21,023 bases of DNA from a virus (IMGVR_UViG_2778261176_000007:1-21023), one strand, 5' to 3'. Shown: positions 1 through 10,760, counted from the stretch's first letter. Notes: generated by a model not told the origin, from the sequence alone. Program-made: numbers and translations.

Positions 1-516
1 ATGAAATTTAAAAAATGTCTTCTGCCTGTGGCAATGTTAGCGTCATTCACTCTGGCAGGATGCCAGTCAAATGCTGATGATCATGCCGCCGATGTTTATC
101 AAACCGATCAACTGAATACCAAACAAGAAACTAAAACCGTTAATATTATTTCCATTCTTCCCGCAAAAGTTGCCGTAGACAACTCCCAAAATAAACGGAA
201 CGCACAAGCCTTCGGCGCGCTTATTGGTGCAGTCGCTGGCGGTGTAATCGGCCACAACGTGGGGTCTGGCAGCAATTCCGGAACGACGGCAGGTGCAGTT
301 GGCGGCGGAGCTGTTGGCGCGGCAGCGGGTTCTATGGTGAATGATAAAACCTTAGTGGAAGGTGTTTCTTTAACGTATAAGGAAGGCACCAAAGTGTATA
401 CCTCCACCCAGGTGGGTAAAGAGTGCCAGTTTACGACAGGTTTAGCCGTTGTTATTACCACGACGTATAACGAAACGCGTATTCAGCCAAATACGAAATG
501 TCCTGAAAAGAGCTAA
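1..516 (+). CDS. yfgH: Outer-membrane lipoprotein with glycine-zipper region (host gene)
   Basis: ATG at position 1. The N-terminus MKFKKCLLPVAMLASFTLAGC is a lipoprotein signal peptide with an LAGC lipobox. A Gly/Ala-rich stretch (GALIGAVAGGVIGHNVGSG...GAVGGGAVGAAAG) follows. Balanced GC composition. The yfgH name is from memory of the E. coli protein, not a search. Confidence 0.8.
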   Translation: MKFKKCLLPVAMLASFTLAGCQSNADDHAADVYQTDQLNTKQETKTVNIISILPAKVAVDNSQNKRNAQAFGALIGAVAGGVIGHNVGSGSNSGTTAGAVGGGAVGAAAGSMVNDKTLVEGVSLTYKEGTKVYTSTQVGKECQFTTGLAVVITTTYNETRIQPNTKCPEKS

Positions 517-531
517 TGATCAGGAGGAGTC

Positions 532-1071
532 ATGAAGAAAGTTTTTCTTTGCGCCATCTTAGCCTCCTTAAGCTATCCGGCTATCGCCTCATCATTGCAG
601 GATCAACTCTCGGCTGTCGCAGAAGCGGAACAGCAAGGTAAAAATGAAGAGCAAAGGCAGCATGACGAATGGGTCGCGGAGCGCAACAGGGAAATCCAGC
701 AAGAGAAGCAACGTCGCGCAAACGCCCAGGCCGCGGCTAATAAAAGAGCGGCAACGGCAGCGGCGAATAAGAAAGCTCGTCAGGATAAACTGGACGCCGA
801 AGCCACTGCGGACAAAAAACGCGATCAAAGTTATGAAGATGAGCTACGCAGCTTAGAGATTCAGAAACAAAAACTGGCGCTGGCGAAAGAAGAAGCCCGC
901 GTCAAGCGCGAAAACGAATTTATCGATCAGGAACTGAAGCACAAAGCTGCGCAAACCGATGTGGTGCAATCTGAAGCTGACGCAAACAGAAATATGACTG
1001 AAGGCGGTCGCGATCTGATGAAAAGCGTGGGCAAAGCAGAAGAGAACAAATCGGACAGCTGGTTTAACTAA
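532..1071 (+). CDS. yfgI: Secreted coiled-coil, charged protein (host gene; YfgI-like)
   Basis: A strong SD (AGGAGG) sits 6 nt upstream of the ATG. N-terminal signal peptide MKKVFLCAILASLSYPAIASS. Lys/Glu/Ala/Gln-rich low-complexity body. Lies 15 nt downstream of the preceding gene. Name assigned from memory of E. coli yfgH-yfgI synteny. Confidence 0.75.
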   Translation: MKKVFLCAILASLSYPAIASSLQDQLSAVAEAEQQGKNEEQRQHDEWVAERNREIQQEKQRRANAQAAANKRAATAAANKKARQDKLDAEATADKKRDQSYEDELRSLEIQKQKLALAKEEARVKRENEFIDQELKHKAAQTDVVQSEADANRNMTEGGRDLMKSVGKAEENKSDSWFN

Positions 1072-1290: not shown

Positions 1291-1773
1291 CTATCTGGTC
1301 AGGGTGTCGTACTGTTTTTCGCAGACTCTTCCGGCTTCGGCTGCCCGGTCAGCATACTCTGCCAGTTGTCTATTTCTCTCGAGAGATTTGCTGAACACGT
1401 CGGCAAGCAAAACTCCGGTGTCTGCGGCTGACGACCCAGCGCCGACAATGGCGTTATAGTGCCTGAGCTGCTCACGGATGGCAACGAGCTGTTGCTGCAA
1501 CCGGCCAGCGCGAGCGGCAGCATCAAGAGCATCATTGCGCGCCTGGTCGATCCTCTGCTGCGCTTCACGTTCATTGATCGATTTCTCCTGTTCGTAGTGC
1601 TGACGAATTCTCTCATCTTCGGTTTTGCGGTCTTCTTTCGCCTGTGCATACCCAGCGTCGTACTGACGACTGCCGTGCACATTCCAGGCAACAACTCCTG
1701 ATATGACCAGAACAGCAAGCACCGCCATGATAATCAACTGTTTACGGTATGCTTTTACGAATGACCAGATCAT
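1291..1773 (-). CDS. Rz-like i-spanin (inner-membrane spanin subunit)
   Basis: 160 aa with an N-terminal TM anchor ([18 protein letters not shown]) and a charged coiled-coil periplasmic domain. Its start ATG overlaps the endolysin stop (ATGA at 1770-1773). A lipoprotein ORF is embedded in the +1 frame. Confidence 0.75.
1299..1574 (-). CDS. Rz1-like o-spanin (outer-membrane lipoprotein) embedded in Rz
   Basis: Internal ATG at 1572-1574 preceded by GGAG at about 10 nt. Signal peptide [26 protein letters not shown] with an LAGC lipobox, followed by a Pro/Ser-rich mature part. Lies wholly inside Rz in a different frame. The start could instead be the MMLLML Met at 1535. Confidence 0.55.
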   Translation of the reverse strand: MNVKRSRGSTRRAMMLLMLPLALAGCSNSSLPSVSSSGTITPLSALGRQPQTPEFCLPTCSANLSREIDNWQSMLTGQPKPEESAKNSTTP

Positions 1774-2399
1774 ACAGCCAGCACCTTACTGGCAGTGACG
1801 TACCGCGCGCGCCGGTCGTCGATGCCATTCCTGCCACCATTGATAATCAGAGTTACACGTGCAATATCGCCGGTATACTTCATGCAACCTTTGCTGGAGA
1901 AGAACCACGCCGCGCTACGAGCCGCGTATTCGTCCTGCGCCAACAGTTCAGGATTCTCCAGCAGGTCCACTTTCAGGCCGTTTCCGCAATCACGATAGTT
2001 ATTCAAACCGGTAATCTGGATAAGTCCGCGGCCACGGTAATTCCAGCCATCGCCGGGGGCATTGTTCCCCATGCGTTTGCTGTACACCAGATTGGCAATC
2101 GCTCGCTGGCGCTCGAGTGGCAATGGTGGTTCACCAGCATGGCGACCCAGTGCATTAGCCTGCCCCTGAGTGAGACGCCCAGCCCGAACGAAGTTAGCCA
2201 GTCCGCTGACACTGTAGTTGAAATTCTCCTGCAACCTGGTGAAGCCCCCAGACTCATGCCCGACTTGAGCAATAAACATTGCCTGATCTTCTGCTTTGCT
2301 GATACCAAACTCTTTCATCGCAGAAGTTATATGCGAGAACCAGCGTGCGGCCAGCGCCTCGCTAATACCAGCAGCTCGCTGGAATTGTTTAATCTCCAT
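1770..2399 (-). CDS. Endolysin, glycoside hydrolase family 19 (chitinase-like lysozyme)
   Basis: 209 aa starting [21 protein letters not shown]. Carries GH19-type motifs ([28 protein letters not shown]). GAGG SD 7 nt upstream of the ATG at 2397-2399. The longer track ORF (to 2630) is a frame shadow of the upstream holin gene. Confidence 0.9.
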
Positions 2400-2697
2400 G
2401 TTTAGACCTCGATATTTTGAAAATCTGAACAACGTTACCGCGTGTTTTAATAACCGCGGCAAGCATGACAGCGTTGATAATGACCTCAGATAAATCCACA
2501 GCCATTGGCGTGCGTAACCAGATTGCATAGACGACACGAACAGGAATACTGGCCGCAGCAACAATAAGGAAATAAGCAAGCCACCCTCCCCATCTTCGAT
2601 GTTGAGAGCCGTTACGCCGGAATGTGACAACGCGAATTGCTATGCCAGTACAAATAACTGCATTGGTGATAAGCAAAAAAAACTCATGCGTTACCAT
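2389..2697 (-). CDS. Holin-like small membrane protein (lysis cassette)
   Basis: 102 aa with 2-3 predicted TM segments and a charged C-terminus. Overlaps the endolysin start by 11 nt and the upstream membrane-protein gene by 14 nt. Position immediately upstream of the endolysin. Confidence 0.55.
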
Positions 2698-3088
2698 CGT
2701 CTTTTCTCCCCGGAATTAAATCGCGTGGATTGTCTGAACGGTGGTAGAGCCATATACCAATACGCACAGCGACAATTGCTGACACGAATGCGCCAGCAGA
2801 GAAAACAATCCCTTTTTCAAAAGAGTCCTGCGTGATGGTAGGGATCAGGCTGGCTATGCCGATAAGAATTGATGCTGCTGGTTTGTAGAAAAGAAGTCCA
2901 CAGAGAAAGCTAAGCATCGATAAGAGTACGCGACGATGAATTGGGTACTCTACCGCAGAGGTAACAAAAATTACCGCACCAGCAAGAGCACCGAGCGCCA
3001 CCTCTGGCGGAACGCCTACGATAACTGCAGCAAGAGAGCTCACACTAAGCCATTGATTTAAAGAATCAGTAGTTAGATGGGCTGACAT
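2684..3088 (-). CDS. Holin / lysis-associated multi-TM membrane protein
   Basis: About 134 aa from the ATG at 3086-3088 (the track ORF begins at a GTG at 3097). Three to four hydrophobic helices and a charged C-terminal tail ([18 protein letters not shown]). First gene of the lysis cassette. Confidence 0.5.
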   Translation of the reverse strand: MSAHLTTDSLNQWLSVSSLAAVIVGVPPEVALGALAGAVIFVTSAVEYPIHRRVLLSMLSFLCGLLFYKPAASILIGIASLIPTITQDSFEKGIVFSAGAFVSAIVAVRIGIWLYHRSDNPRDLIPGRKDDGNA

Positions 3089-3317
3089 AATGAACACCGT
3101 TTATTACGCATAACAATCTCCTTACTATTGAAGATTCACACATAATAAACCATTTAAGGATAATAGTTACCTCAAAACGCTGTATTTCTACCTTCTACGG
3201 CAATGAAAATTTCGTTCAGAAAATGGTCTAGTGTACCTCTCAGTCACAATTAAAGAAGAAAGAAGCCGAACTTACTTCGTAATAAGCAAGCCGGCTACTA
3301 AGATTAATCCTCAATAT

Positions 3318-6074
3318 TTAGCTACTTTCAAGCATTGCAAGACGTGATTCTATTTTTTCGATTCTTCTACGCAAATAAGCTGACTCAAGCCATAAACACT
3401 GGTCAGTACGGATACCCCACCTATTTCCAGCCTTGCAAACCAGAGTTCGCTCTTCTGTTTCGTATTCTTCTTCCATCTCAATTTCGACGCCATCCACAAC
3501 TTTAGTGATCATCCTTACCGCCATCACTGGCGCGTATTTATCATCCCATTCATCGTAACAGAGAAGGCCAAATCTGGTTCCATCAATCCCATGCGCGAGG
3601 AAAGTGTCTCTCACTTGTTGTGCTATAACACCAAAATGCCAGCGGGCACCATCTCCCTTTTCCCTGACGGCATCAAGCCAGCGAAAAGCTACAATCCTGA
3701 TATCTCCCCATGCATCCAGAATTGCATCACCTTCATAACCACGAGACATATACAAGCTGAGCTCACTTGTACTAATCGGTTCACTTTTTTCTCTACCATC
3801 TGATGTGTTTATCGAACCGTTCGCAGAATAAACCTGTGCCCATCTAAATGATGGTGCACCAAGAGATTTGCTGTTATCAATAATTGGTGAAAAATTACCT
3901 TTAATAGCAATATTTCCAGAGTCGCCGAATATATTAATAACTGCAGAGTCATCACCATGGTTTTTTACGCTTAAGTTTCTTGATGAAATATTTATATCTT
4001 TGTTATATCCACTAACATTAATCCATCTTTTACCATCAATGTGATACCCGTAAATATTTCCGTTTGATTGTTCGTCAGGTGACTCTCTAAGAACAATAGC
4101 ATCTACTCCAGACGACCATTGTATTTTTGTATCTGTAGGCCTCCAGTTCTTTATAATGAACGAACCATCAGTAAACTCCGTTTTTATTTGTCTATTGTCT
4201 ACAAATGCGTCTCTTGGTTTAAACTCACTTGTGTTAACGCTGCTCTGAAGATCAGAAGCAAAAAATCTAAGATTTCCTGTATAACCCTTAGTCTCGGTCA
4301 GGTTATACGCAATCATAATTCCATTTTCAAACTCAGATGATGTTATTTTAACATCACGGCAATCACCAAAAATGCAATTTCCTTTATCAAATGTTGTTTG
4401 AGCTTTGAATTTATCAAACCTTAAATTACGAACAGGGAAACCATCAACCTCTAATGCAAAGGATGCAGGAAGGCCAAAGTATTCTGATGGCTTACCTGAT
4501 GTATGATCAAGAGTAGTGGCTACTGTATTCTCAAAAACAGTCCCGCTAAAATTATTACCAATTGACGGAAACCTGATTACACTTATTGTACCTTGTATTT
4601 CAGGAGAAATACCAGATAGTGTGATGTTAGCTCCATCAAATGATGCATCTGAATACGTATATACTGATTCACTGCCAGCAATTTTAAACTGTTTAACTGA
4701 AGTTATTCTCATCGACTTTTTATGTTTAAATGTCACTGAGCTTTCAGTATTACTTACAAGATCAATCTGAGGGCTATTCCTTATCGCGATTCCTGACTGG
4801 ACATAAACGTTATTAAAGTGCGTTTTTTCAGGATTTCCCTTCATTGAAAGGCTACCGTCATTTTCTGTCAGTAGTAGTCCTTTTACCCTCCAATAGCCGA
4901 CAATCTGTACGTTATCAATAACTGAATCACAGCTATCGTATACATGCAACCCTATATCCCAGTTATCACCCAATGAATAAGAATCAGGGTTATTGTATCC
5001 TTCAATACCATTTTTACTTACCATTATTCTCAGATTGCGTAACTGTGATGCCCTGTTGATACTAACAGCTACGCTCATGGCTTTTGGTGTAGCAGGAGTA
5101 ACACCTACAGAATCTTCATTTGTAAACTCAGTGAACTTACAAGATATCCCTTCAACAATTTTAACTGGTCTTTCATTAGAGATGTTAAAAAAATATTTGT
5201 TTTTTTCTCCATCACCAGTAAATATAAGATGGGTTCCTTTACTCCAACTTTTTAATAATCTTTCAGGCGCTGGTCTATATGTATCCCAATAATCAATGCC
5301 ATCACCAATTAAAGACACTCCAGGAGGCACATCTATGTTCTTAGAAATCATCCATTTACCTGCAGGTATTCTAACGACACTTGCACCAGAATTTATCGCA
5401 TTAATTAACCATTCAGACGCATCAACTTCAAAATTTAATGCAGCATATCTTTGCTCAAACGGAACAAAATCAAGAGCGTTAACGTTATCCCGCATCTTAT
5501 CCTGGAACGTTCGGTATACTGCTCCAGAACCATACTGAATAAACCAACCAAAACCACCAACAACTCCGGCGATTGCAGCATCAACATAATTGCGCATTGA
5601 TCGATTATTTACAGCATCCTGCTCAAGTGATGGATCTGCAAGGTTAGAAATTTTGTTTTGCTTTGCATCGTAATATTTTGCAAGCAAAGATGGTTTCATC
5701 AATGCACGTCTGAACCATCCAAAACATTGCTGGATCAGCATCGTCAGGTAGTCAAATGCATCCTCATGAACTTCGGGGAAAAATTTTCCCTGATTGCGAA
5801 GATCAGTCTCCTGCACCACATCAAGCACACGCTCTATCGTGATTCTCCAGCCAGCAGCAAGCGGCGACGGAAGAACCACAGAACCGCCACTATAAGTGCC
5901 CGCCCCTGTTACCGTATAACCGGTATCCAGAACCAATTCTGTTACGTTCCCGTTCAGGTCAGACACCTGAACAACCAGGTCGGATTTTTTGAAAATACGG
6001 AAGGTATACGGAAATGATGTCGTAGTGCCGTTACCTGTGTATTCGTTGTGGTCAACTTCGGTTGAGACCGTCAT
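3318..6074 (-). CDS. Tailspike / tail fiber with T7 gp17-like N-terminal adaptor, central putative depolymerase domain and C-terminal intramolecular chaperone (peptidase S74-like)
   Basis: 918 aa. The N-terminal 120 aa align by eye with the T7 gp17 N-terminus (YTGNGTTTSFPYTFRIF versus YQLDGSNRDFNIPFEY). The central region is AT-rich (about 3800-5650). The last 160 aa or so (SDGREKSEPISTSELSL...WHFGVIAQQVRDTF...) resemble the autocleaving chaperone domain of endosialidase-type tailspikes. GGAGA SD upstream of the ATG at 6072-6074. Confidence 0.9.
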   Translation of the reverse strand: MTVSTEVDHNEYTGNGTTTSFPYTFRIFKKSDLVVQVSDLNGNVTELVLDTGYTVTGAGTYSGGSVVLPSPLAAGWRITIERVLDVVQETDLRNQGKFFPEVHEDAFDYLTMLIQQCFGWFRRALMKPSLLAKYYDAKQNKISNLADPSLEQDAVNNRSMRNYVDAAIAGVVGGFGWFIQYGSGAVYRTFQDKMRDNVNALDFVPFEQRYAALNFEVDASEWLINAINSGASVVRIPAGKWMISKNIDVPPGVSLIGDGIDYWDTYRPAPERLLKSWSKGTHLIFTGDGEKNKYFFNISNERPVKIVEGISCKFTEFTNEDSVGVTPATPKAMSVAVSINRASQLRNLRIMVSKNGIEGYNNPDSYSLGDNWDIGLHVYDSCDSVIDNVQIVGYWRVKGLLLTENDGSLSMKGNPEKTHFNNVYVQSGIAIRNSPQIDLVSNTESSVTFKHKKSMRITSVKQFKIAGSESVYTYSDASFDGANITLSGISPEIQGTISVIRFPSIGNNFSGTVFENTVATTLDHTSGKPSEYFGLPASFALEVDGFPVRNLRFDKFKAQTTFDKGNCIFGDCRDVKITSSEFENGIMIAYNLTETKGYTGNLRFFASDLQSSVNTSEFKPRDAFVDNRQIKTEFTDGSFIIKNWRPTDTKIQWSSGVDAIVLRESPDEQSNGNIYGYHIDGKRWINVSGYNKDINISSRNLSVKNHGDDSAVINIFGDSGNIAIKGNFSPIIDNSKSLGAPSFRWAQVYSANGSINTSDGREKSEPISTSELSLYMSRGYEGDAILDAWGDIRIVAFRWLDAVREKGDGARWHFGVIAQQVRDTFLAHGIDGTRFGLLCYDEWDDKYAPVMAVRMITKVVDGVEIEMEEEYETEERTLVCKAGNRWGIRTDQCLWLESAYLRRRIEKIESRLAMLESS

Positions 6075-6177
6075 GTTAAATCTCCAGATAGTCGCAGCAC
6101 CCGTTGCGCCGCATATCTGGTTATTCTATTACCTGAAAAACCACATATGGATAGAAAGACTGTAAATACGAATAGAT

Positions 6178-6194
6178 ATTACCTTTCGGGTAAT
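6178..6194. promoter_or_regulatory. 17-bp palindromic operator-like site ATTACC-TTTCG-GGTAAT (copy 1 of 5)
   Basis: Perfect 6-bp inverted arms with a 5-bp spacer. Located in the divergent region between the tailspike gene and the small Ant-C-like gene. Confidence 0.55.
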
Positions 6195-6232
6195 TTGCAA
6201 AACGTGCTGGATAGCAAACAAATTATTTGCTA

Positions 6233-6248
6233 CTGTATAAATATACAG
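6233..6248. promoter_or_regulatory. LexA (SOS) box CTGT-ATAAATAT-ACAG
   Basis: taCTGTATAAATATACAGtt differs from the LexA consensus CTGTATATATATACAG at one central position. It sits 22 nt upstream of the ATG at 6270 and contains a TATAAAT -10-like hexamer. Confidence 0.6.
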
Positions 6249-6269
6249 TTATTGCATGGAGAAGATAAG

Positions 6270-6527
6270 ATGCAGCAGTATCACTATCCACTGGAAGACG
6301 GATTTACCGAAAGGATTCACACGCCGGGAGGCGTCAGATCACTAGTGGAGGGATCGCACTTGATGAAATTACTCCGGGATCTCGATAAGGATGGATTTAA
6401 TGTCGATGGCCCACTTGCCGAACTGACTGCACTGATTAACTACGTCACCAGCTCACAGATGTCTATGCGGGATCTGCAAACACATCTCGACTATTGTGCC
6501 GAACAATTACGAAAACAAACCAGATAA
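6270..6527 (+). CDS. Small stand-alone protein homologous to the C-terminal domain of the two Bro-N antirepressors (candidate SOS-controlled antirepressor-like factor)
   Basis: 85 aa from the internal ATG (the track ORF starts at 6147 but would cover the operator palindrome and LexA box). GGAG SD 9 nt upstream. Alignable by eye to the Ant C-termini (LAELTALINYVTSSQMSMRDLQTHLDY versus AAELTTMFCYIVGVSKCLRDIQTHAEY). Confidence 0.5.
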   Translation: MQQYHYPLEDGFTERIHTPGGVRSLVEGSHLMKLLRDLDKDGFNVDGPLAELTALINYVTSSQMSMRDLQTHLDYCAEQLRKQTR

Positions 6528-6556
6528 GGTTTGCAATTACCAAGTGGAGTGCTTAT

Positions 6557-6575
6557 ATTTACCTTTGCGGTAAAT
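6557..6575. promoter_or_regulatory. Palindromic operator-like site ATTTACC-TTTGC-GGTAAAT (copy 2 of 5), at the start of the ant1 leader
   Basis: Perfect 7-bp arms. About 45 nt upstream of the conserved structured leader element. Confidence 0.55.
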
Positions 6576-6600
6576 TTACATCGCACTCCTCTTGTGCCAT

Positions 6601-6685
6601 AGTAATCGGGCACTGGCAAAATCCAGTGCCGGGATTGGCGTCCCGGATTACTAAAAGGCGCATTCACCGCGCAAGCGGTTTTTTT
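6601..6685 (+). ncRNA. Structured leader RNA element upstream of ant1 (c4-like antisense-RNA candidate): closing stem, two hairpins, and a hairpin plus U7 terminator
   Basis: Stem AGTAATC (6601-6607) pairs with GATTACT (6646-6652). Hairpin A is GGCACTGG-caaaat-CCAGTGCC (6609-6630). Hairpin B is CCGGGA-ttggcg-TCCCGG (6629-6646). Terminator-like ACCGC-gcaa-GCGGT followed by T7 (6666-6685). The stems are conserved in the inverted ant2 copy while the loops differ (compensatory pattern). Confidence 0.4.
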
Positions 6686-6842
6686 ATGCGTATAGCACGG
6701 CCACATTCGTATTATGGTGGGCTGTGTGGGGGCACCGAAAGGTGCGCCGGGTCCTTTTAGCCGGTTACGCCAACCCTGCACAGCTCACCACCAACCGATT
6801 GGCGTCGGTAGTGGTGATTAACCAGACTAAAAGGTAACCACT

Positions 6843-7538
6843 ATGACAGCTACAAAAAGCACGTCCATTTTTTCTTTCGAATCCCAAGCCGATATACGAG
6901 TAATCGTCATTAATGGTGAGCCATGGTTTATCGCTTCAGATGTTTGTCGGGCTATAGGCATAGCAAACCATCGAGATGCTGTTCGAAAACTTGATGATGA
7001 TGAGAAGGGCGTCGCTTCAACCGACACCCCTGGCGGTGAGCAAGAATCGATCATCATCTCCGAGTCAGGCCTCTACACACTGATCCTCCGCTGCCGCGAC
7101 GCAGTGACACCAGGCACTATCCCCTACCGCTTTCGTAAATGGGTTACAGGTGAGGTTCTTCCTCAGATCCGCCGCACCGGAAGCTACATTAAAAACTCGC
7201 TCCCGCAGGAAGAACGCATAAAGATGGTTGCCGACCAGGTAGCCAACGCCACGGCGTCAGCAGTAATGCAGGCGATGAAGATAGAGAACAAAACCTACAG
7301 CGCCCCGCTGAAGCCCGGCTACCGCAGTTTGATTCACTCGCCGTCTGGTGTTCTCGGCCTGACGGAGAACTCACTGCTGATGAATCTGCTGAACCAGTTA
7401 CAGGAAGACGGGCACGACGTATCGGGCGCGGCGGCGGAACTGACCACCATGTTCTGCTACATCGTCGGTGTGAGTAAATGCCTGCGTGATATCCAGACCC
7501 ACGCGGAATACATCAACGACAAGGCAGGGGTCTTCTGA
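6843..7538 (+). CDS. Antirepressor-like protein with Bro-N N-terminal domain (ant1)
   Basis: 231 aa. N-terminus IFSFESQADIRVIVINGEPWFIASDVCRAIGI...ESGLYTLILR is a Bro-N-type motif. AAAGGT SD before the ATG. The C-terminal half is nearly identical (about 95 percent nucleotide identity) to the inverted paralog at 8652-9344. Confidence 0.85.
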   Translation: MTATKSTSIFSFESQADIRVIVINGEPWFIASDVCRAIGIANHRDAVRKLDDDEKGVASTDTPGGEQESIIISESGLYTLILRCRDAVTPGTIPYRFRKWVTGEVLPQIRRTGSYIKNSLPQEERIKMVADQVANATASAVMQAMKIENKTYSAPLKPGYRSLIHSPSGVLGLTENSLLMNLLNQLQEDGHDVSGAAAELTTMFCYIVGVSKCLRDIQTHAEYINDKAGVF

Positions 7539-7547
7539 CAGAACGGC

Positions 7548-7570
7548 GGCACAGGGATGTGCCTTTAAAT
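7548..7570 (+). terminator. Putative terminator of ant1 (hairpin GGCACA-ggga-TGTGCC followed by TTTAAAT)
   Basis: 6-bp stem about 10 nt after the ant1 stop. The T-tract is interrupted, so this is weakly supported. Confidence 0.35.
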
Positions 7571-7604: not shown

Positions 7605-7619
7605 TTACCCCAAAGGTAA
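7605..7619. promoter_or_regulatory. Palindromic operator-like site TTACC-CCAAA-GGTAA (copy 3 of 5), upstream of the AT-rich two-gene cassette
   Basis: Perfect 5-bp arms with a 5-bp spacer, about 120 nt upstream of the ATG at 7737. Confidence 0.5.
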
Positions 7620-7736: not shown

Positions 7737-7955
7737 ATGTTTAAATTTGATATGCAACTCAACCAAAACTATGCCTCTTTTTACCATCCAGAAACTGGTA
7801 AAGCTGTTTTCGTTGACTCTTTCGATAATGAAGAATTTGATATCAGAATTGGGACCCTACGCCAAAGTAAGCATGTTGCTACTGTACGTGCATCCAATGA
7901 TGATGAATTAAATCAAAAAATAAGTGAGGCGACCTCCCGTTATCTATGTCTATAA
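7737..7955 (+). CDS. Hypothetical protein, 72 aa (first gene of AT-rich moron cassette)
   Basis: Strong SD GGGAGG 7 nt upstream of the ATG. AT-rich codon usage unlike the flanking genes. Its stop overlaps the start of the next ORF (ATG at 7946, TAA at 7953-7955). No recognisable domain. Confidence 0.55.
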   Translation: MFKFDMQLNQNYASFYHPETGKAVFVDSFDNEEFDIRIGTLRQSKHVATVRASNDDELNQKISEATSRYLCL

Positions 7956-8323
7956 CAGAACAACAACTCATTGATCTTGAGGATGAGATTAACGAGATCT
8001 TGCAAGAAGATGCGGCAAGAATTCACTTTTCATTTCACGCAGCATATGAACGCCTGAACGACGAGAGGAACAAACCGCCAATTACTCTTGCTGAGCTTGA
8101 AGATGTGTTTAAATCGTTTATATCTGCACATCTGCAGACTGTTTTGGATTTTGCTGAAGGTACAACTTTCACCATAAAGTGCAACAAAAGCGCCCTTCAT
8201 TTTCCTTGCGCCATTGTACACGAAAGAGAGTTTGGGAAAACGTGGGTTATCCAAAACGTCATTACAGCCATGAGGAAAGTGGGATTCAAGTCTAAAGATT
8301 CTATTATCCTCGAAGTTAATTAA
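7946..8323 (+). CDS. Hypothetical protein, 125 aa (second gene of AT-rich moron cassette)
   Basis: Translationally coupled to the 72-aa ORF. Acidic N-terminal half. Followed immediately by an intrinsic terminator. No recognisable domain. Confidence 0.6.
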   Translation: MSITEQQLIDLEDEINEILQEDAARIHFSFHAAYERLNDERNKPPITLAELEDVFKSFISAHLQTVLDFAEGTTFTIKCNKSALHFPCAIVHEREFGKTWVIQNVITAMRKVGFKSKDSIILEVN

Positions 8324-8344: not shown

Positions 8345-8416
8345 ATGGACGAAACAAAAGTCAGTGCTACACTCATTGACGCCACATTGAGGTGGCTTAT
8401 AGATGGAAATTTCACA

Positions 8417-8578
8417 ATGAAAAAAGCATTTGCTGCACTGTTCGTTTTGTTGTCTCTGGTAGCTTCAACTCAGGCCTTTGCCGGTCGTTGTCAGCACGAC
8501 AGCGATACTGCCGCTGACGGCTCCCGCTGCGGTGGGCGTTCTGCGGACTCCCGCCCGGGCGGCGGTGGCATTCGTTAA
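8417..8578 (+). CDS. Small secreted Cys/Gly-rich peptide (about 53 aa), hypothetical
   Basis: Signal peptide MKKAFAALFVLLSLVASTQAFA then GRCQHDSDTAADGSRCGGRSADSRPGGGGIR. Weak SD. The upstream in-frame ATG at 8345 lies inside the preceding terminator T-tract, so 8417 is the more plausible start. Confidence 0.3.
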   Translation: MKKAFAALFVLLSLVASTQAFAGRCQHDSDTAADGSRCGGRSADSRPGGGGIR

Positions 8579-8600: not shown

Positions 8601-8651
8601 TGTGACATGTCACGCTAGTTTCGTTTTGCACGTCCCTGTGCCGACGTTCTG

Positions 8652-9344
8652 TCAGAAGAACCCTGCCTTGTCGTTGATGTATTCCGCGTGCGTCTGGATA
8701 TCACGCAGGCATTTGCTCACACCGACGATGTAGCAGAACATGGTGGTCAGCTCCGCCGCCGCACCCGATACGTCGTGCCCGTCTTCCTGTAACTGGTTCA
8801 GCAGATTCATCAGCAGTGAGTTCTCCGTCAGGCCGAGAACACCAGACGGAGAATGAATCAGGCTGCGGTAGCCGGGCTTCAGCGGGGAGCTGTAGGTTTT
8901 GTTCTCTATCTTCATTGCCTGCATCACTGCTGATGCTGTGGCGTTGGCTACCTGGTCGGCAACCATCTTTATGCGTTCTTCCTGAGGGAGCGAGTTTTTA
9001 ATGTAACTTCCGGTGCGGCGGATCTGAGGAAGAACCTCACCTGTAACCCATTCAAGAAATCTGAATGCTCTCGTTCCCTCAGTCATTGCCTCTTTGCAAC
9101 GCAGAATAAGGATGTAGAGACCTGATTCTGAAACGATGGATAGTTCTTGTATTCCACCAGGGGTCTGTATTGAATACAGCCCCTTTTTGTTCCAGCCTTT
9201 TTTATCAAGTTTTCTCGCTTGTGTAACATCAATATTCAAAGCATTGCACACATCTTTGGTGACAAACCAAGGTTCTCCGTCAATCATGAACATACGGATC
9301 TGGCAGGATGACTCAAAGGAAAAGATGGAAGGTTTGGTATTCAT
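8652..9344 (-). CDS. Antirepressor-like protein with Bro-N N-terminal domain (ant2), inverted paralog of ant1
   Basis: 230 aa from the ATG at 9342-9344 (the track ORF starts 15 codons upstream at a TTG). AAAGGTGA SD. The Bro-N domain has diverged from ant1 while the C-terminal 130 aa differ at only 2 residues. Confidence 0.85.
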   Translation of the reverse strand: MNTKPSIFSFESSCQIRMFMIDGEPWFVTKDVCNALNIDVTQARKLDKKGWNKKGLYSIQTPGGIQELSIVSESGLYILILRCKEAMTEGTRAFRFLEWVTGEVLPQIRRTGSYIKNSLPQEERIKMVADQVANATASAVMQAMKIENKTYSSPLKPGYRSLIHSPSGVLGLTENSLLMNLLNQLQEDGHDVSGAAAELTTMFCYIVGVSKCLRDIQTHAEYINDKAGFF

Positions 9345-9611: not shown

Positions 9612-9626
9612 TTACCTCAAAGGTAA
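9612..9626. promoter_or_regulatory. Palindromic operator-like site TTACC-TCAAA-GGTAA (copy 4 of 5), at the start of the ant2 leader
   Basis: Perfect 5-bp arms. Equivalent position to copy 2 in the inverted arm. Lies in the divergent region between ant2 and the 9774 gene. Confidence 0.5.
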
Positions 9627-9773: not shown

Positions 9774-10172
9774 GTGCCATTCCACGGCGTAGAACTTTAT
9801 GTTGTCAATCACAACGGCGAACCGTACACCCCAATGAAACCTATCGTTGAGGGAATGGGGCTAGACTGGAAATCTCAACATAAGAAGATTTCTCAACGCT
9901 TCTCGAAGGGTATGGTGGAAATCACCATACCTTCTGCCGGTGGGGTGCAAGCCATGATTTGTATGGCTTTACGAAAATTGGCAGCTTGGTTGAACAGCAT
10001 CAGCCCTAACAAAGTCCGCCCTGAAATCCGCGATAAGGTAATCCAGTATCAGGAAGAGTGTGATGATGTGCTCTATGAGTACTGGACTAAAGGCCATGTG
10101 GTTAACCCGCGCAAAGCTAAAAAGGTGTTGCCGGGTAAAATCACTACTGAGCAACAGGAGGTATACACTTAA
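9774..10172 (+). CDS. Phage antirepressor-like protein (P22 AR N-terminal-like domain), hypothetical
   Basis: 132 aa. The motif LRKLAAWLNSISPNKVRPEIRDKVIQYQEECDDVLYEYW resembles antirepressor N-terminal domains as I recall them. The first in-frame start is a GTG with no clear SD, so the start is uncertain (an internal ATG lies 20 codons in). Confidence 0.5.
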   Translation: MPFHGVELYVVNHNGEPYTPMKPIVEGMGLDWKSQHKKISQRFSKGMVEITIPSAGGVQAMICMALRKLAAWLNSISPNKVRPEIRDKVIQYQEECDDVLYEYWTKGHVVNPRKAKKVLPGKITTEQQEVYT

Positions 10173-10196: not shown

Positions 10197-10213
10197 ATTA
10201 CCTTTAAGGTAAT
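10197..10213. promoter_or_regulatory. Palindromic operator-like site ATTACC-TTTAA-GGTAAT (copy 5 of 5), immediately upstream of the membrane-anchored moron
   Basis: Perfect 6-bp arms. Ends 20 nt before the ATG at 10233, so it overlaps the expected promoter/RBS region. Confidence 0.55.
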
Positions 10214-10232: not shown

Positions 10233-10760
10233 ATGGAAGTTTTCTTAATCATCGTCGGCATCGTGATTATTAATTTTGTTTTTTTATTTATTGCAAAAAA
10301 ACAAAAAAGTAACGATATGCATGTTTCTACAACTGATGATCTTACCTTTGTAGAGCATGCACTGAATGTATCAGGATATAAACTCACTCCATACGGAGCT
10401 GGTGTATCACTCATGTCTTTAAGTAACGGTTTTTCAAAAGAAGAAACATTTTCACATATAGCTTTGATGGCTCTTTCTCAACACGCCAAAGTCGCAGGTA
10501 GTGACGCAATTGAGCTTAGTAAAGTTAGCATTCGTGCGATGTCGATAGCTGAAAACTTAACTAAATTATTCAGGAAAGGTCTTATTCGATCAGAAATATA
10601 TAAAAATGATTTGAATGCTATCATGGCTGTCAGCACAATTAATGAAAACCAAGAGGATTGGATTTCCATAGTTCTGGAAAGCAATAGCACATCTAACAAG
10701 GATACTATTGCTTTGCCGATAAGTGCAGAAGCTTCTTTAGAAGCCATAAACAGCCATTGA
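10233..10760 (+). CDS. Membrane-anchored hypothetical protein (moron; candidate superinfection-exclusion or abortive-infection factor)
   Basis: 175 aa. N-terminal TM helix (VFLIIVGIVIINFVFLFIA) followed by KKQK, then a soluble domain. GAGG SD 7 nt upstream. Strongly AT-rich coding sequence. Convergent with the structural operon. Confidence 0.65.
   Translation: MEVFLIIVGIVIINFVFLFIAKKQKSNDMHVSTTDDLTFVEHALNVSGYKLTPYGAGVSLMSLSNGFSKEETFSHIALMALSQHAKVAGSDAIELSKVSIRAMSIAENLTKLFRKGLIRSEIYKNDLNAIMAVSTINENQEDWISIVLESNSTSNKDTIALPISAEASLEAINSH

Follow-up and report, generated by a model that had tools for sequence, protein, structure and literature searches.

A small antirepressor gene behind a predicted LexA box in a phiV10-type prophage of Escherichia coli: an ortholog of ant of Salmonella phage SPC32H

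How can a prophage respond to DNA damage if its repressor carries no autocleavage domain? The question is raised by a locus in a viral sequence of 21,023 nt (IMGVR_UViG_2778261176_000007:1-21023, hereafter the window), where a near-consensus LexA box stands directly in front of a small gene. Escherichia coli prophages of the phiV10 type undergo induction in response to a microcin that damages DNA (bioRxiv 10.64898/2026.05.26.727859), and the first-pass annotation of the window had proposed that the small gene encodes an SOS-triggered antirepressor, which would allow induction without autocleavage of the repressor. This proposal is supported here by the orthology of the gene product to the antirepressor Ant of Salmonella phage SPC32H, by the conservation of the box and by a repressor in related prophages that lacks a peptidase S24 domain.

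The host genes yfgH and yfgI open the window (1-1071) and are followed at 1291-6074 by one end of a prophage, with Rz, a GH19 endolysin and two holin-like genes, at the guaA-yfgI site into which phiV10-type phages integrate. The lysis cassette as well as the tail-fiber and internal virion protein genes match those of phiV10/epsilon15-like podoviruses (genus Uetakevirus), and to judge from these genes the element that bears the small gene is a phiV10/epsilon15-like prophage of E. coli. Such prophages are common in this species: the 751-nt region around the gene has matches in 909 of 5,426 complete E. coli genomes, and for 391 of these the match extends over the greater part of the region. The O-acetyltransferase gene that phiV10 possesses is absent between the lysis cassette and the 918-aa tail-fiber gene of the window, and the type of tail fiber differs among the relatives, with an endosialidase in APEC O1 and other types elsewhere.

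The small gene and its protein

The gene (6270-6527, plus strand) starts with an ATG at 6270 and its stop codon ends at 6527; the Shine-Dalgarno sequence GGAGAAG (6258-6264), of which GGAG (6258-6261) lies 8 nt before the ATG, is part of TGCATGGAG, conserved in most homologs. The start codon and the 85-aa product assigned to it at first are thereby confirmed. A phmmer search of the PDB with this protein retrieved a single solved structure, 5D50_E, an "Anti-repressor protein" of 86 aa (E 1.4e-46; residues 2-84 aligned with residues 3-85 of 5D50_E), and BLASTP gave 87% identity over 83 aa to SPC32H Ant. The protein also matches PHROG 450 (7e-48) and is orthologous to phiV10 gp24 and epsilon15 gp19. 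In SPC32H, ant has the corresponding location: the tailspike gene runs divergently from it and the genes for internal virion proteins adjoin it. The features of the SPC32H Ant family found here include homology over the full length, a stand-alone ORF of about 86 aa, the position in a Uetakevirus genome divergent from a tailspike or tail-fiber gene and, by sequence, a LexA box. Judged by these features, 6270-6527 is ant, an ortholog of SPC32H Ant. The Ant/Rep switch of SPC32H is the subject of Kim and Ryu 2013 (J Virol 87:11775) and Kim et al. 2016 (PNAS 113:E2480); its structures are deposited as PDB 5D4Z and 5D50, of which 5D50 shows Ant bound to its repressor Rep.

The 85-aa product had been described as homologous only to the C-terminal domain, termed Ant-C, of two Bro-N proteins encoded nearby. 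The homology itself holds (43% identity to residues ~150-223 of both proteins, E 1e-16), whereas the word "only" does not, given the 87% identity to SPC32H Ant/5D50_E. As the name of a family, Ant-C had to be dropped: a Pfam search gave no family above threshold for either the 85-aa protein or the C-terminal parts of the Bro-N proteins, membership of ant in ANT/KilAC (PF03374) was rejected as the profile did not match, and the term is best kept as a local label for the C-terminal part of these neighbors.

Between the window and SPC32H, differences at the first, second and third codon positions number 7/7/41 inside the 85-codon ORF, with 35 synonymous and 12 amino-acid-changing codon differences, and by this comparison ant is under strong purifying selection. 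A longer ORF (6147-6527, 126 aa) was rejected because the differences in the upstream frame are distributed as 16/8/16 and because stop codons occur in this frame in Enterobacter, Pseudocitrobacter, Scandinavium and other relatives. The seeming conservation of the frame upstream of 6270 is, on this evidence, that of regulatory DNA elements.

These comparisons bear on a different origin of the gene, namely that the small ORF is a decaying C-terminal fragment of a duplicated Bro-N antirepressor, in which case the LexA-like palindrome would be fortuitous or would serve the divergent tail-fiber gene. Such an origin would be in line with the homology of the ORF to the C-terminal third of the Bro-N proteins encoded next to it and with the hypothetical/unknown labels in RefSeq and PHROGs, but it conflicts with the purifying selection and with the persistence of the small gene as an ORF of its own, about 85-86 aa long, in at least seven genera. 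In addition, the full-length 86-aa homolog is a solved and named protein, the distance between box and ant start is fixed in nearly all homologs and SPC32H has the small gene in a genome with no Bro-N fusion, and hardly any weight can be given to a decaying fragment. As regards the labels, phiV10 gp24, epsilon15 gp19 and the RefSeq E. coli copies WP_001188254.1 and WP_001188252.1 are designated hypothetical protein, as is the small ant product of E. coli phage vB_EcoP_ZX5 (QZE12053.1), and PHROG 450 bears the label "unknown function". The value of reading the gene as an ortholog of SPC32H ant lies in annotation, as the E. coli copies could take over the name "LexA-controlled antirepressor Ant (SPC32H type)".

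The LexA box and the ant promoter

The sequence CTGTATAAATATACAG (6233-6248) agrees with the palindromic LexA core CTGTATATATATACAG in 15 of 16 positions, as had been stated for this site, and the 20-mer around it, TACTGTATAAATATACAGTT (6231-6250), agrees with the LexA consensus TACTGTATATATATACAGTA in 18 of 20. No other site in the window comes within three mismatches of the LexA 20-mer, and none did so in 100 dinucleotide-preserving shuffles. The core of the predicted LexA (SOS) box ends 21 nt before the ATG of ant. The looser pattern CTGT-N8-ACAG occurs twice in the window vs 0.34 expected; the second occurrence (5053-5068) lies inside the tail-fiber ORF with a spacer that does not have the TAT/ATA inner pattern, and it was discarded as a LexA site and treated as chance.

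Upstream regions of ant homologs were taken from 8 phage genomes, 80 viral contigs and 6 genomes of bacteria from other genera; the counts refer to the 57 different sequences among them in which the ribosome-binding-site anchor is present. In 55 of these 57, CTGT-N8-ACAG recurs at an unchanged distance from the start codon; of the remaining two, the contig ends in one and an insertion interrupts the box in the other. The eight bases between the arms differ from sequence to sequence (ATAAATAT, ATATTTAT, ATAAACAT, GTATTTAT, ATGTTTAT, ATAAGCAT, ACATATAT and others), and the combination of invariant CTGT/ACAG arms with variable inner bases is what one would expect of a LexA site. The position of the box is conserved in relatives from E. 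coli, Salmonella, Citrobacter, Enterobacter, Erwinia, Pseudocitrobacter and Scandinavium, and, as far as such comparisons tell, the box upstream of ant is under selection.

In two Klebsiella phages (L006 and L009) and one Superficieibacter phage (L016) the box reads ATGT-N8-ACAG, with loss of the critical C of the left arm. Kim and Ryu are said to have found in 2013 that in SPC32N, a variant of SPC32H, one changed base in the LexA box leads to constitutive Ant and lytic growth. In view of the lost C and of this reported change, control of ant by LexA may be weakened in the three phages. On the tail-fiber side, 73 nt upstream of the main box, CTGTAAATACGAATAG (6160-6175) is one base short of another CTGT-N8-ACAG; four distinct variants, represented by L062, L065, L083 and L093, have the full motif at this position (e.g., CTGTGAATACGAACAG), which may be due to chance or represent a second, weak LexA site.

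With respect to the promoter, the first-pass annotation had placed a -10-like TATAAAT over the box. This sequence is indeed present at 6236-6242, overlapping the box, but the same bases read TATGTTT in SPC32H and TGTATTT in phiV10, and as a -10 element it was abandoned for want of conservation. An extended -10-like TGcTACTGT (6228-6236, plus strand) that overlaps the left arm of the LexA box is the likelier candidate, TGnTACTGT being conserved in relatives with a full CTGT..ACAG box. A -35-like hexamer TGGATA is proposed at 6208-6213 (plus strand), with a distance of exactly 17 nt to TACTGT. It forms part of GTGCTGGATAG, a stretch shared by phiV10/epsilon15-type relatives and not found in L006, L009, L015 and L016. 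The spacer between TGGATA and TACTGT varies in sequence and has a fixed length of 17 nt in the aligned relatives. A generic consensus promoter scan of the window returned nothing above threshold at this place.

The p95 promoter of phage 186 provides a precedent, since its annotated -10, TACTGT, coincides with the left end of the LexA site (TGCTACTGTATGTTTATACAGTA), a layout almost superimposable (TGCTACTGTAT...ATACAGT) on that of the window. Based on this precedent and on the conservation of TGnTACTGT, the ant promoter is read as TGGATA-17-TGnTACTGT with its -10 placed over the left arm of the box, although we infer rather than observe the exact hexamers. The likeness to phage 186 extends to function, as p95 is LexA-repressed and Tum, a small antirepressor directed at a non-cleavable repressor, inhibits DNA binding by CI. 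In contrast, Tum has 146 aa, is annotated as DinI-like and belongs to a P2-like myovirus, and homology between ant and Tum was rejected (BLASTP E 0.056 in a single pairwise comparison, 14/47 identities). Tum, which had been cited as a precedent, may therefore be retained as a functional analog with a similar promoter layout and not as a homolog.

The predicted switch from LexA through Ant to Rep

The repressor on which Ant would act is encoded about 30 kb from ant, beyond the window, and its homologs were read in related prophages. Phage phiV10 and the E. coli prophage of FDAARGOS_1257, which occupies the same guaA-yfgI site, encode a Rep homolog of 193 aa that matches 5D50_A (E 1.7e-41) with 42% identity to SPC32H Rep, and in which helix-turn-helix domains (HTH_3) are the only ones, with no Peptidase_S24. 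In these related prophages Rep is of the non-cleavable type, and the prophage in the window would be predicted to have a Rep of this kind. SPC32H Rep itself reportedly remained uncleaved during the SOS response in the 2013 work of Kim and Ryu.

The window resembles SPC32H closely: the two Ant proteins are orthologous, of the same length, encoded at the same genomic position in the same genus, and in both cases the LexA box is equally far from the start codon. The differences concern the E. coli host with integration between guaA and yfgI, the divergence of Rep, the inner bases of the box (ATAAATAT in the window vs ATGTTTAT in SPC32H) and an isrK-C4-Bro-N::Ant module that follows ant in the window and is absent from SPC32H. 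For SPC32H, PMC7380047 reports that cleavage of LexA leads to production of Ant, which inhibits the repressor by protein-protein interaction, and later structural papers describe how Ant binds Rep and takes the Rep tetramer apart. Control by LexA, the contact of Ant with Rep and the breakup of the tetramer are taken here from the SPC32H literature and transferred to the E. coli prophage.

Transferred in this way, the switch would operate as follows. In the lysogen, host LexA bound to the SOS box at 6231-6250 would keep ant silent, since the box overlaps the -10 and the start region of the ant promoter. After DNA damage, activated RecA would promote the self-cleavage of LexA and Ant would be made; Ant would then bind the prophage repressor Rep, a protein with two HTH that has no S24 autocleavage domain, and split the DNA-binding Rep tetramer into inactive dimers. 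Rep would leave its operators and the lytic genes would be expressed. We consider it probable (roughly 0.85) that a LexA/Ant/Rep switch of the SPC32H type operates in the E. coli prophage, as its orthology suggests. The weakest link in the transferred mechanism appears to be the contact between Ant and Rep: with a Rep only 42% identical to that of SPC32H, vs 87% for Ant, binding between the two in the E. coli lineage is presumed by analogy. The system is the E. coli ortholog of a switch already described; it represents a rediscovery and its mechanism is not new. It would explain the response of phiV10-type prophages to DNA damage despite a repressor without an autocleavage domain.

The unequal conservation of the two proteins between SPC32H and the E. 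coli lineage would also suit a broad antirepressor, one that is LexA-controlled and acts chiefly in trans, in anti-immunity or cross-talk, on the repressors of other resident or incoming Uetakevirus-type phages. Trans-acting LexA-controlled antirepressors have been documented for the Gifsy and Fels prophages (PMC3121763), and two more Ant-domain proteins near ant are under control of the P1-immI type, classically tied to superinfection immunity. The Salmonella antirepressors of Gifsy and Fels-2 are like ant in that they are SOS-controlled, target non-cleavable repressors and may cross-talk between prophages (Lemire et al. 2011, PMC3121763); they differ in belonging to other protein families and to lambdoid and P2-like phages, and it is by description that they are set apart. 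On the other hand, the SPC32H literature presents ant as the switch of its own prophage, and Rep has no S24 domain that could serve as an alternative SOS input. In part this view of ant goes back to what Kim and Ryu reportedly described in 2013. A chiefly trans-acting role, compatible as it is with a switch of the SPC32H type, seems quite unlikely to be the main one.

A further element close to the ant promoter is a palindrome of the form TTACC-N5-GGTAA. It occurs five times in the window vs 0.01 expected, each time directly upstream of a transcription unit: before ant (6179-6193), before both isrK promoters (6559-6573 and 9612-9626), before the group of ORFs beginning at 7737 (7605-7619) and before the ORF at 10233 (10198-10212). 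The copy before ant, TTACCTTTCGGGTAA (6179-6193), lies between ant and the divergent tail-fiber gene, its distance to the -35-like hexamer downstream being about 15 nt, and most relatives have it at the corresponding place. The copy at 6559-6573 abuts the -35 of the isrK promoter and forms the center of a hairpin-forming inverted repeat 3' of ant. The SPC32H genome contains 10 copies vs 0 expected, and in SPC32H, phiV10 and the E. coli prophage the palindrome is found on both sides of rep, like lambda OL/OR, and before most operons. From this distribution, TTACC-N5-GGTAA is probably the Rep operator, and if so Rep would be a genome-wide repressor.

Since a probable Rep operator (6179-6193) lies close to the promoter, the control of ant may go beyond LexA. 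In its strong form, this would mean that the protein binding TTACC-N5-GGTAA, probably Rep, also governs the ant promoter and that cleavage of LexA alone is insufficient. The position of the palindrome next to the -35-like hexamer in most relatives and the occurrence of the same palindrome on the flanks of rep are consistent with such a dual control. The single-base change reported for the box of SPC32N, however, sufficed for constitutive Ant, which would make LexA the decisive lock; moreover, several E. coli relatives have a mutated palindrome (GGTGA) and an intact LexA box, and the site could serve the divergent tail-fiber promoter instead. A strict requirement for both controls is very unlikely on balance, and release of LexA is retained as the principal trigger of ant.

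The isrK/C4 modules downstream of ant

Downstream of ant, two inverted modules (6554-7562 on the plus strand and 9631-8628 on the minus strand) each comprise a promoter, an isrK-family RNA, a C4 antisense RNA and a gene for a Bro-N::Ant-like protein. In the first, the promoter scan detected a promoter-like TTTACA-17-(TG)CATAGT at 6575-6603, followed by an isrK-family RNA with its own terminator (6610-6685; Rfam RF01394, 77.9 bits) that carries the decoys a1 (UUGGCGU, 6635-6641) and b1 (CUAAAAGG, 6651-6658). The C4 antisense RNA (6710-6795; RF01695, 79.2 bits) contains b' (CCUUUUAG, 6753-6760) and a' (ACGCCAA, 6767-6773), and it precedes a gene for a Bro-N::Ant-like antirepressor of 231 aa (6843-7538, Pfam Bro-N) whose leader has a2 at 6799-6805 and b2 at 6827-6834, over the ribosome-binding site. 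The second module, on the minus strand, consists of isrK (9575-9499, 74.7 bits in Rfam), C4 (9480-9393, 78.6 bits) and the second Bro-N gene (9389-8652).

In both modules the b'/a' loops of C4 have exactly complementary stretches of 7-9 nt at two places, b1/a1 in isrK and b2/a2 in the leader of the Bro-N gene; pairing was scored on such stretches, as folding of full-length C4 duplexes gave only uninformative long duplexes. Between the modules, compensatory changes are present on both partners (UUGGCGU/ACGCCAA vs UUGGUCU/AGACCAA, and CUAAAAGG/CCUUUUAG vs CUACAAAGG/CCUUUGUAG), which indicates two different RNA specificities. The modules are, by their sequence, of the known P1-immI type (c4 and c4-a1b1 motifs; isrK locus) and differ in specificity. 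The locus with which they, and not the small ant, should be compared is immI of P1/P7 (c4 antisense RNA, icd, ant) along with the isrK locus of Gifsy-1: C4/isrK stand before antirepressor genes, a'/b' are complementary to a1/b1 and a2/b2, and b2 lies over the ribosome-binding site. The window differs from P1 immI in that the controlled gene is a Bro-N::SPC32H-Ant-like fusion and not P1 Ant, in the presence of two inverted modules of different specificity and in the LexA-controlled ant directly upstream on the same strand.

The C-terminus of the first fusion protein (6843-7538) matches 5D50_E (1e-13), and the whole protein is 99% identical to ORF4, the "anti-repressor" of E. coli phage vB_EcoP_ZX5. 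Overexpression of ZX5 ORF4 lowered the prophage titer from 10^9 to 10^6 and reduced repressor transcription by 75% (PMC9782041). That study (PMC9782041), the sole experimental work on an E. coli phage nearly identical to this one, mentions neither SPC32H nor LexA and treats the Bro-N protein alone as the antirepressor; it differs from the present analysis in that the small upstream Ant went unrecognized. It is plausible, in view of these homologies, that the C-terminal domain shared by ant and the Bro-N proteins is the module that targets the repressor, as had been suggested at the outset.

The arrangement of ant and isrK/C4 on the same strand recurs in 79 of 95 homologous loci, with a gap of 50-99 nt in 51 (82 nt in the window). 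This tandem was found in Escherichia, Citrobacter, Enterobacter, Erwinia, Superficieibacter and Scandinavium and, among the same 95 loci, is absent from Salmonella phages of the SPC32H/epsilon15 type. A search of the window for a U-tract terminator between ant and isrK detected only a hairpin. Based on this arrangement, it may be speculated that ant and isrK-C4-Bro-N::Ant form a conserved anti-repression cassette of two tiers. SOS transcripts from the ant promoter would continue across the 82-nt gap, which has no terminator, into isrK and, since the isrK region carries the a1/b1 decoys, the read-through RNA would titrate C4 and unlock translation of Bro-N::Ant; through the probable Rep operator that each promoter has, the cassette would be coupled to the occupancy of Rep, and the second module, of another specificity, would add an input. 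Such a cassette would act as a feed-forward amplifier that makes induction irreversible, but we regard this extension of the switch as fairly unlikely.

Several other features accompany the modules. The ORF at 10233-10760 (175 aa), preceded by one of the TTACC-N5-GGTAA palindromes, has no family match. Divergent from the second isrK module, the ORF at 9774-10172 (132 aa) consists of a P22_AR_N domain only (Pfam E 5e-44) and accordingly has no C-terminal effector part. A 558-nt inverted repeat (7005-7562 and 8628-9185; 88% complementary overall) takes in the 3' halves of the two Bro-N genes, whose products have nearly identical C-terminal ~120 aa and diverged N-terminal domains. The repeat flanks a segment of 1065 nt with three small ORFs (7737-7955, 7946-8323 and 8345-8578), for which a Pfam search gave no matches, and it could be the trace of a gene conversion or could permit inversion of this segment.
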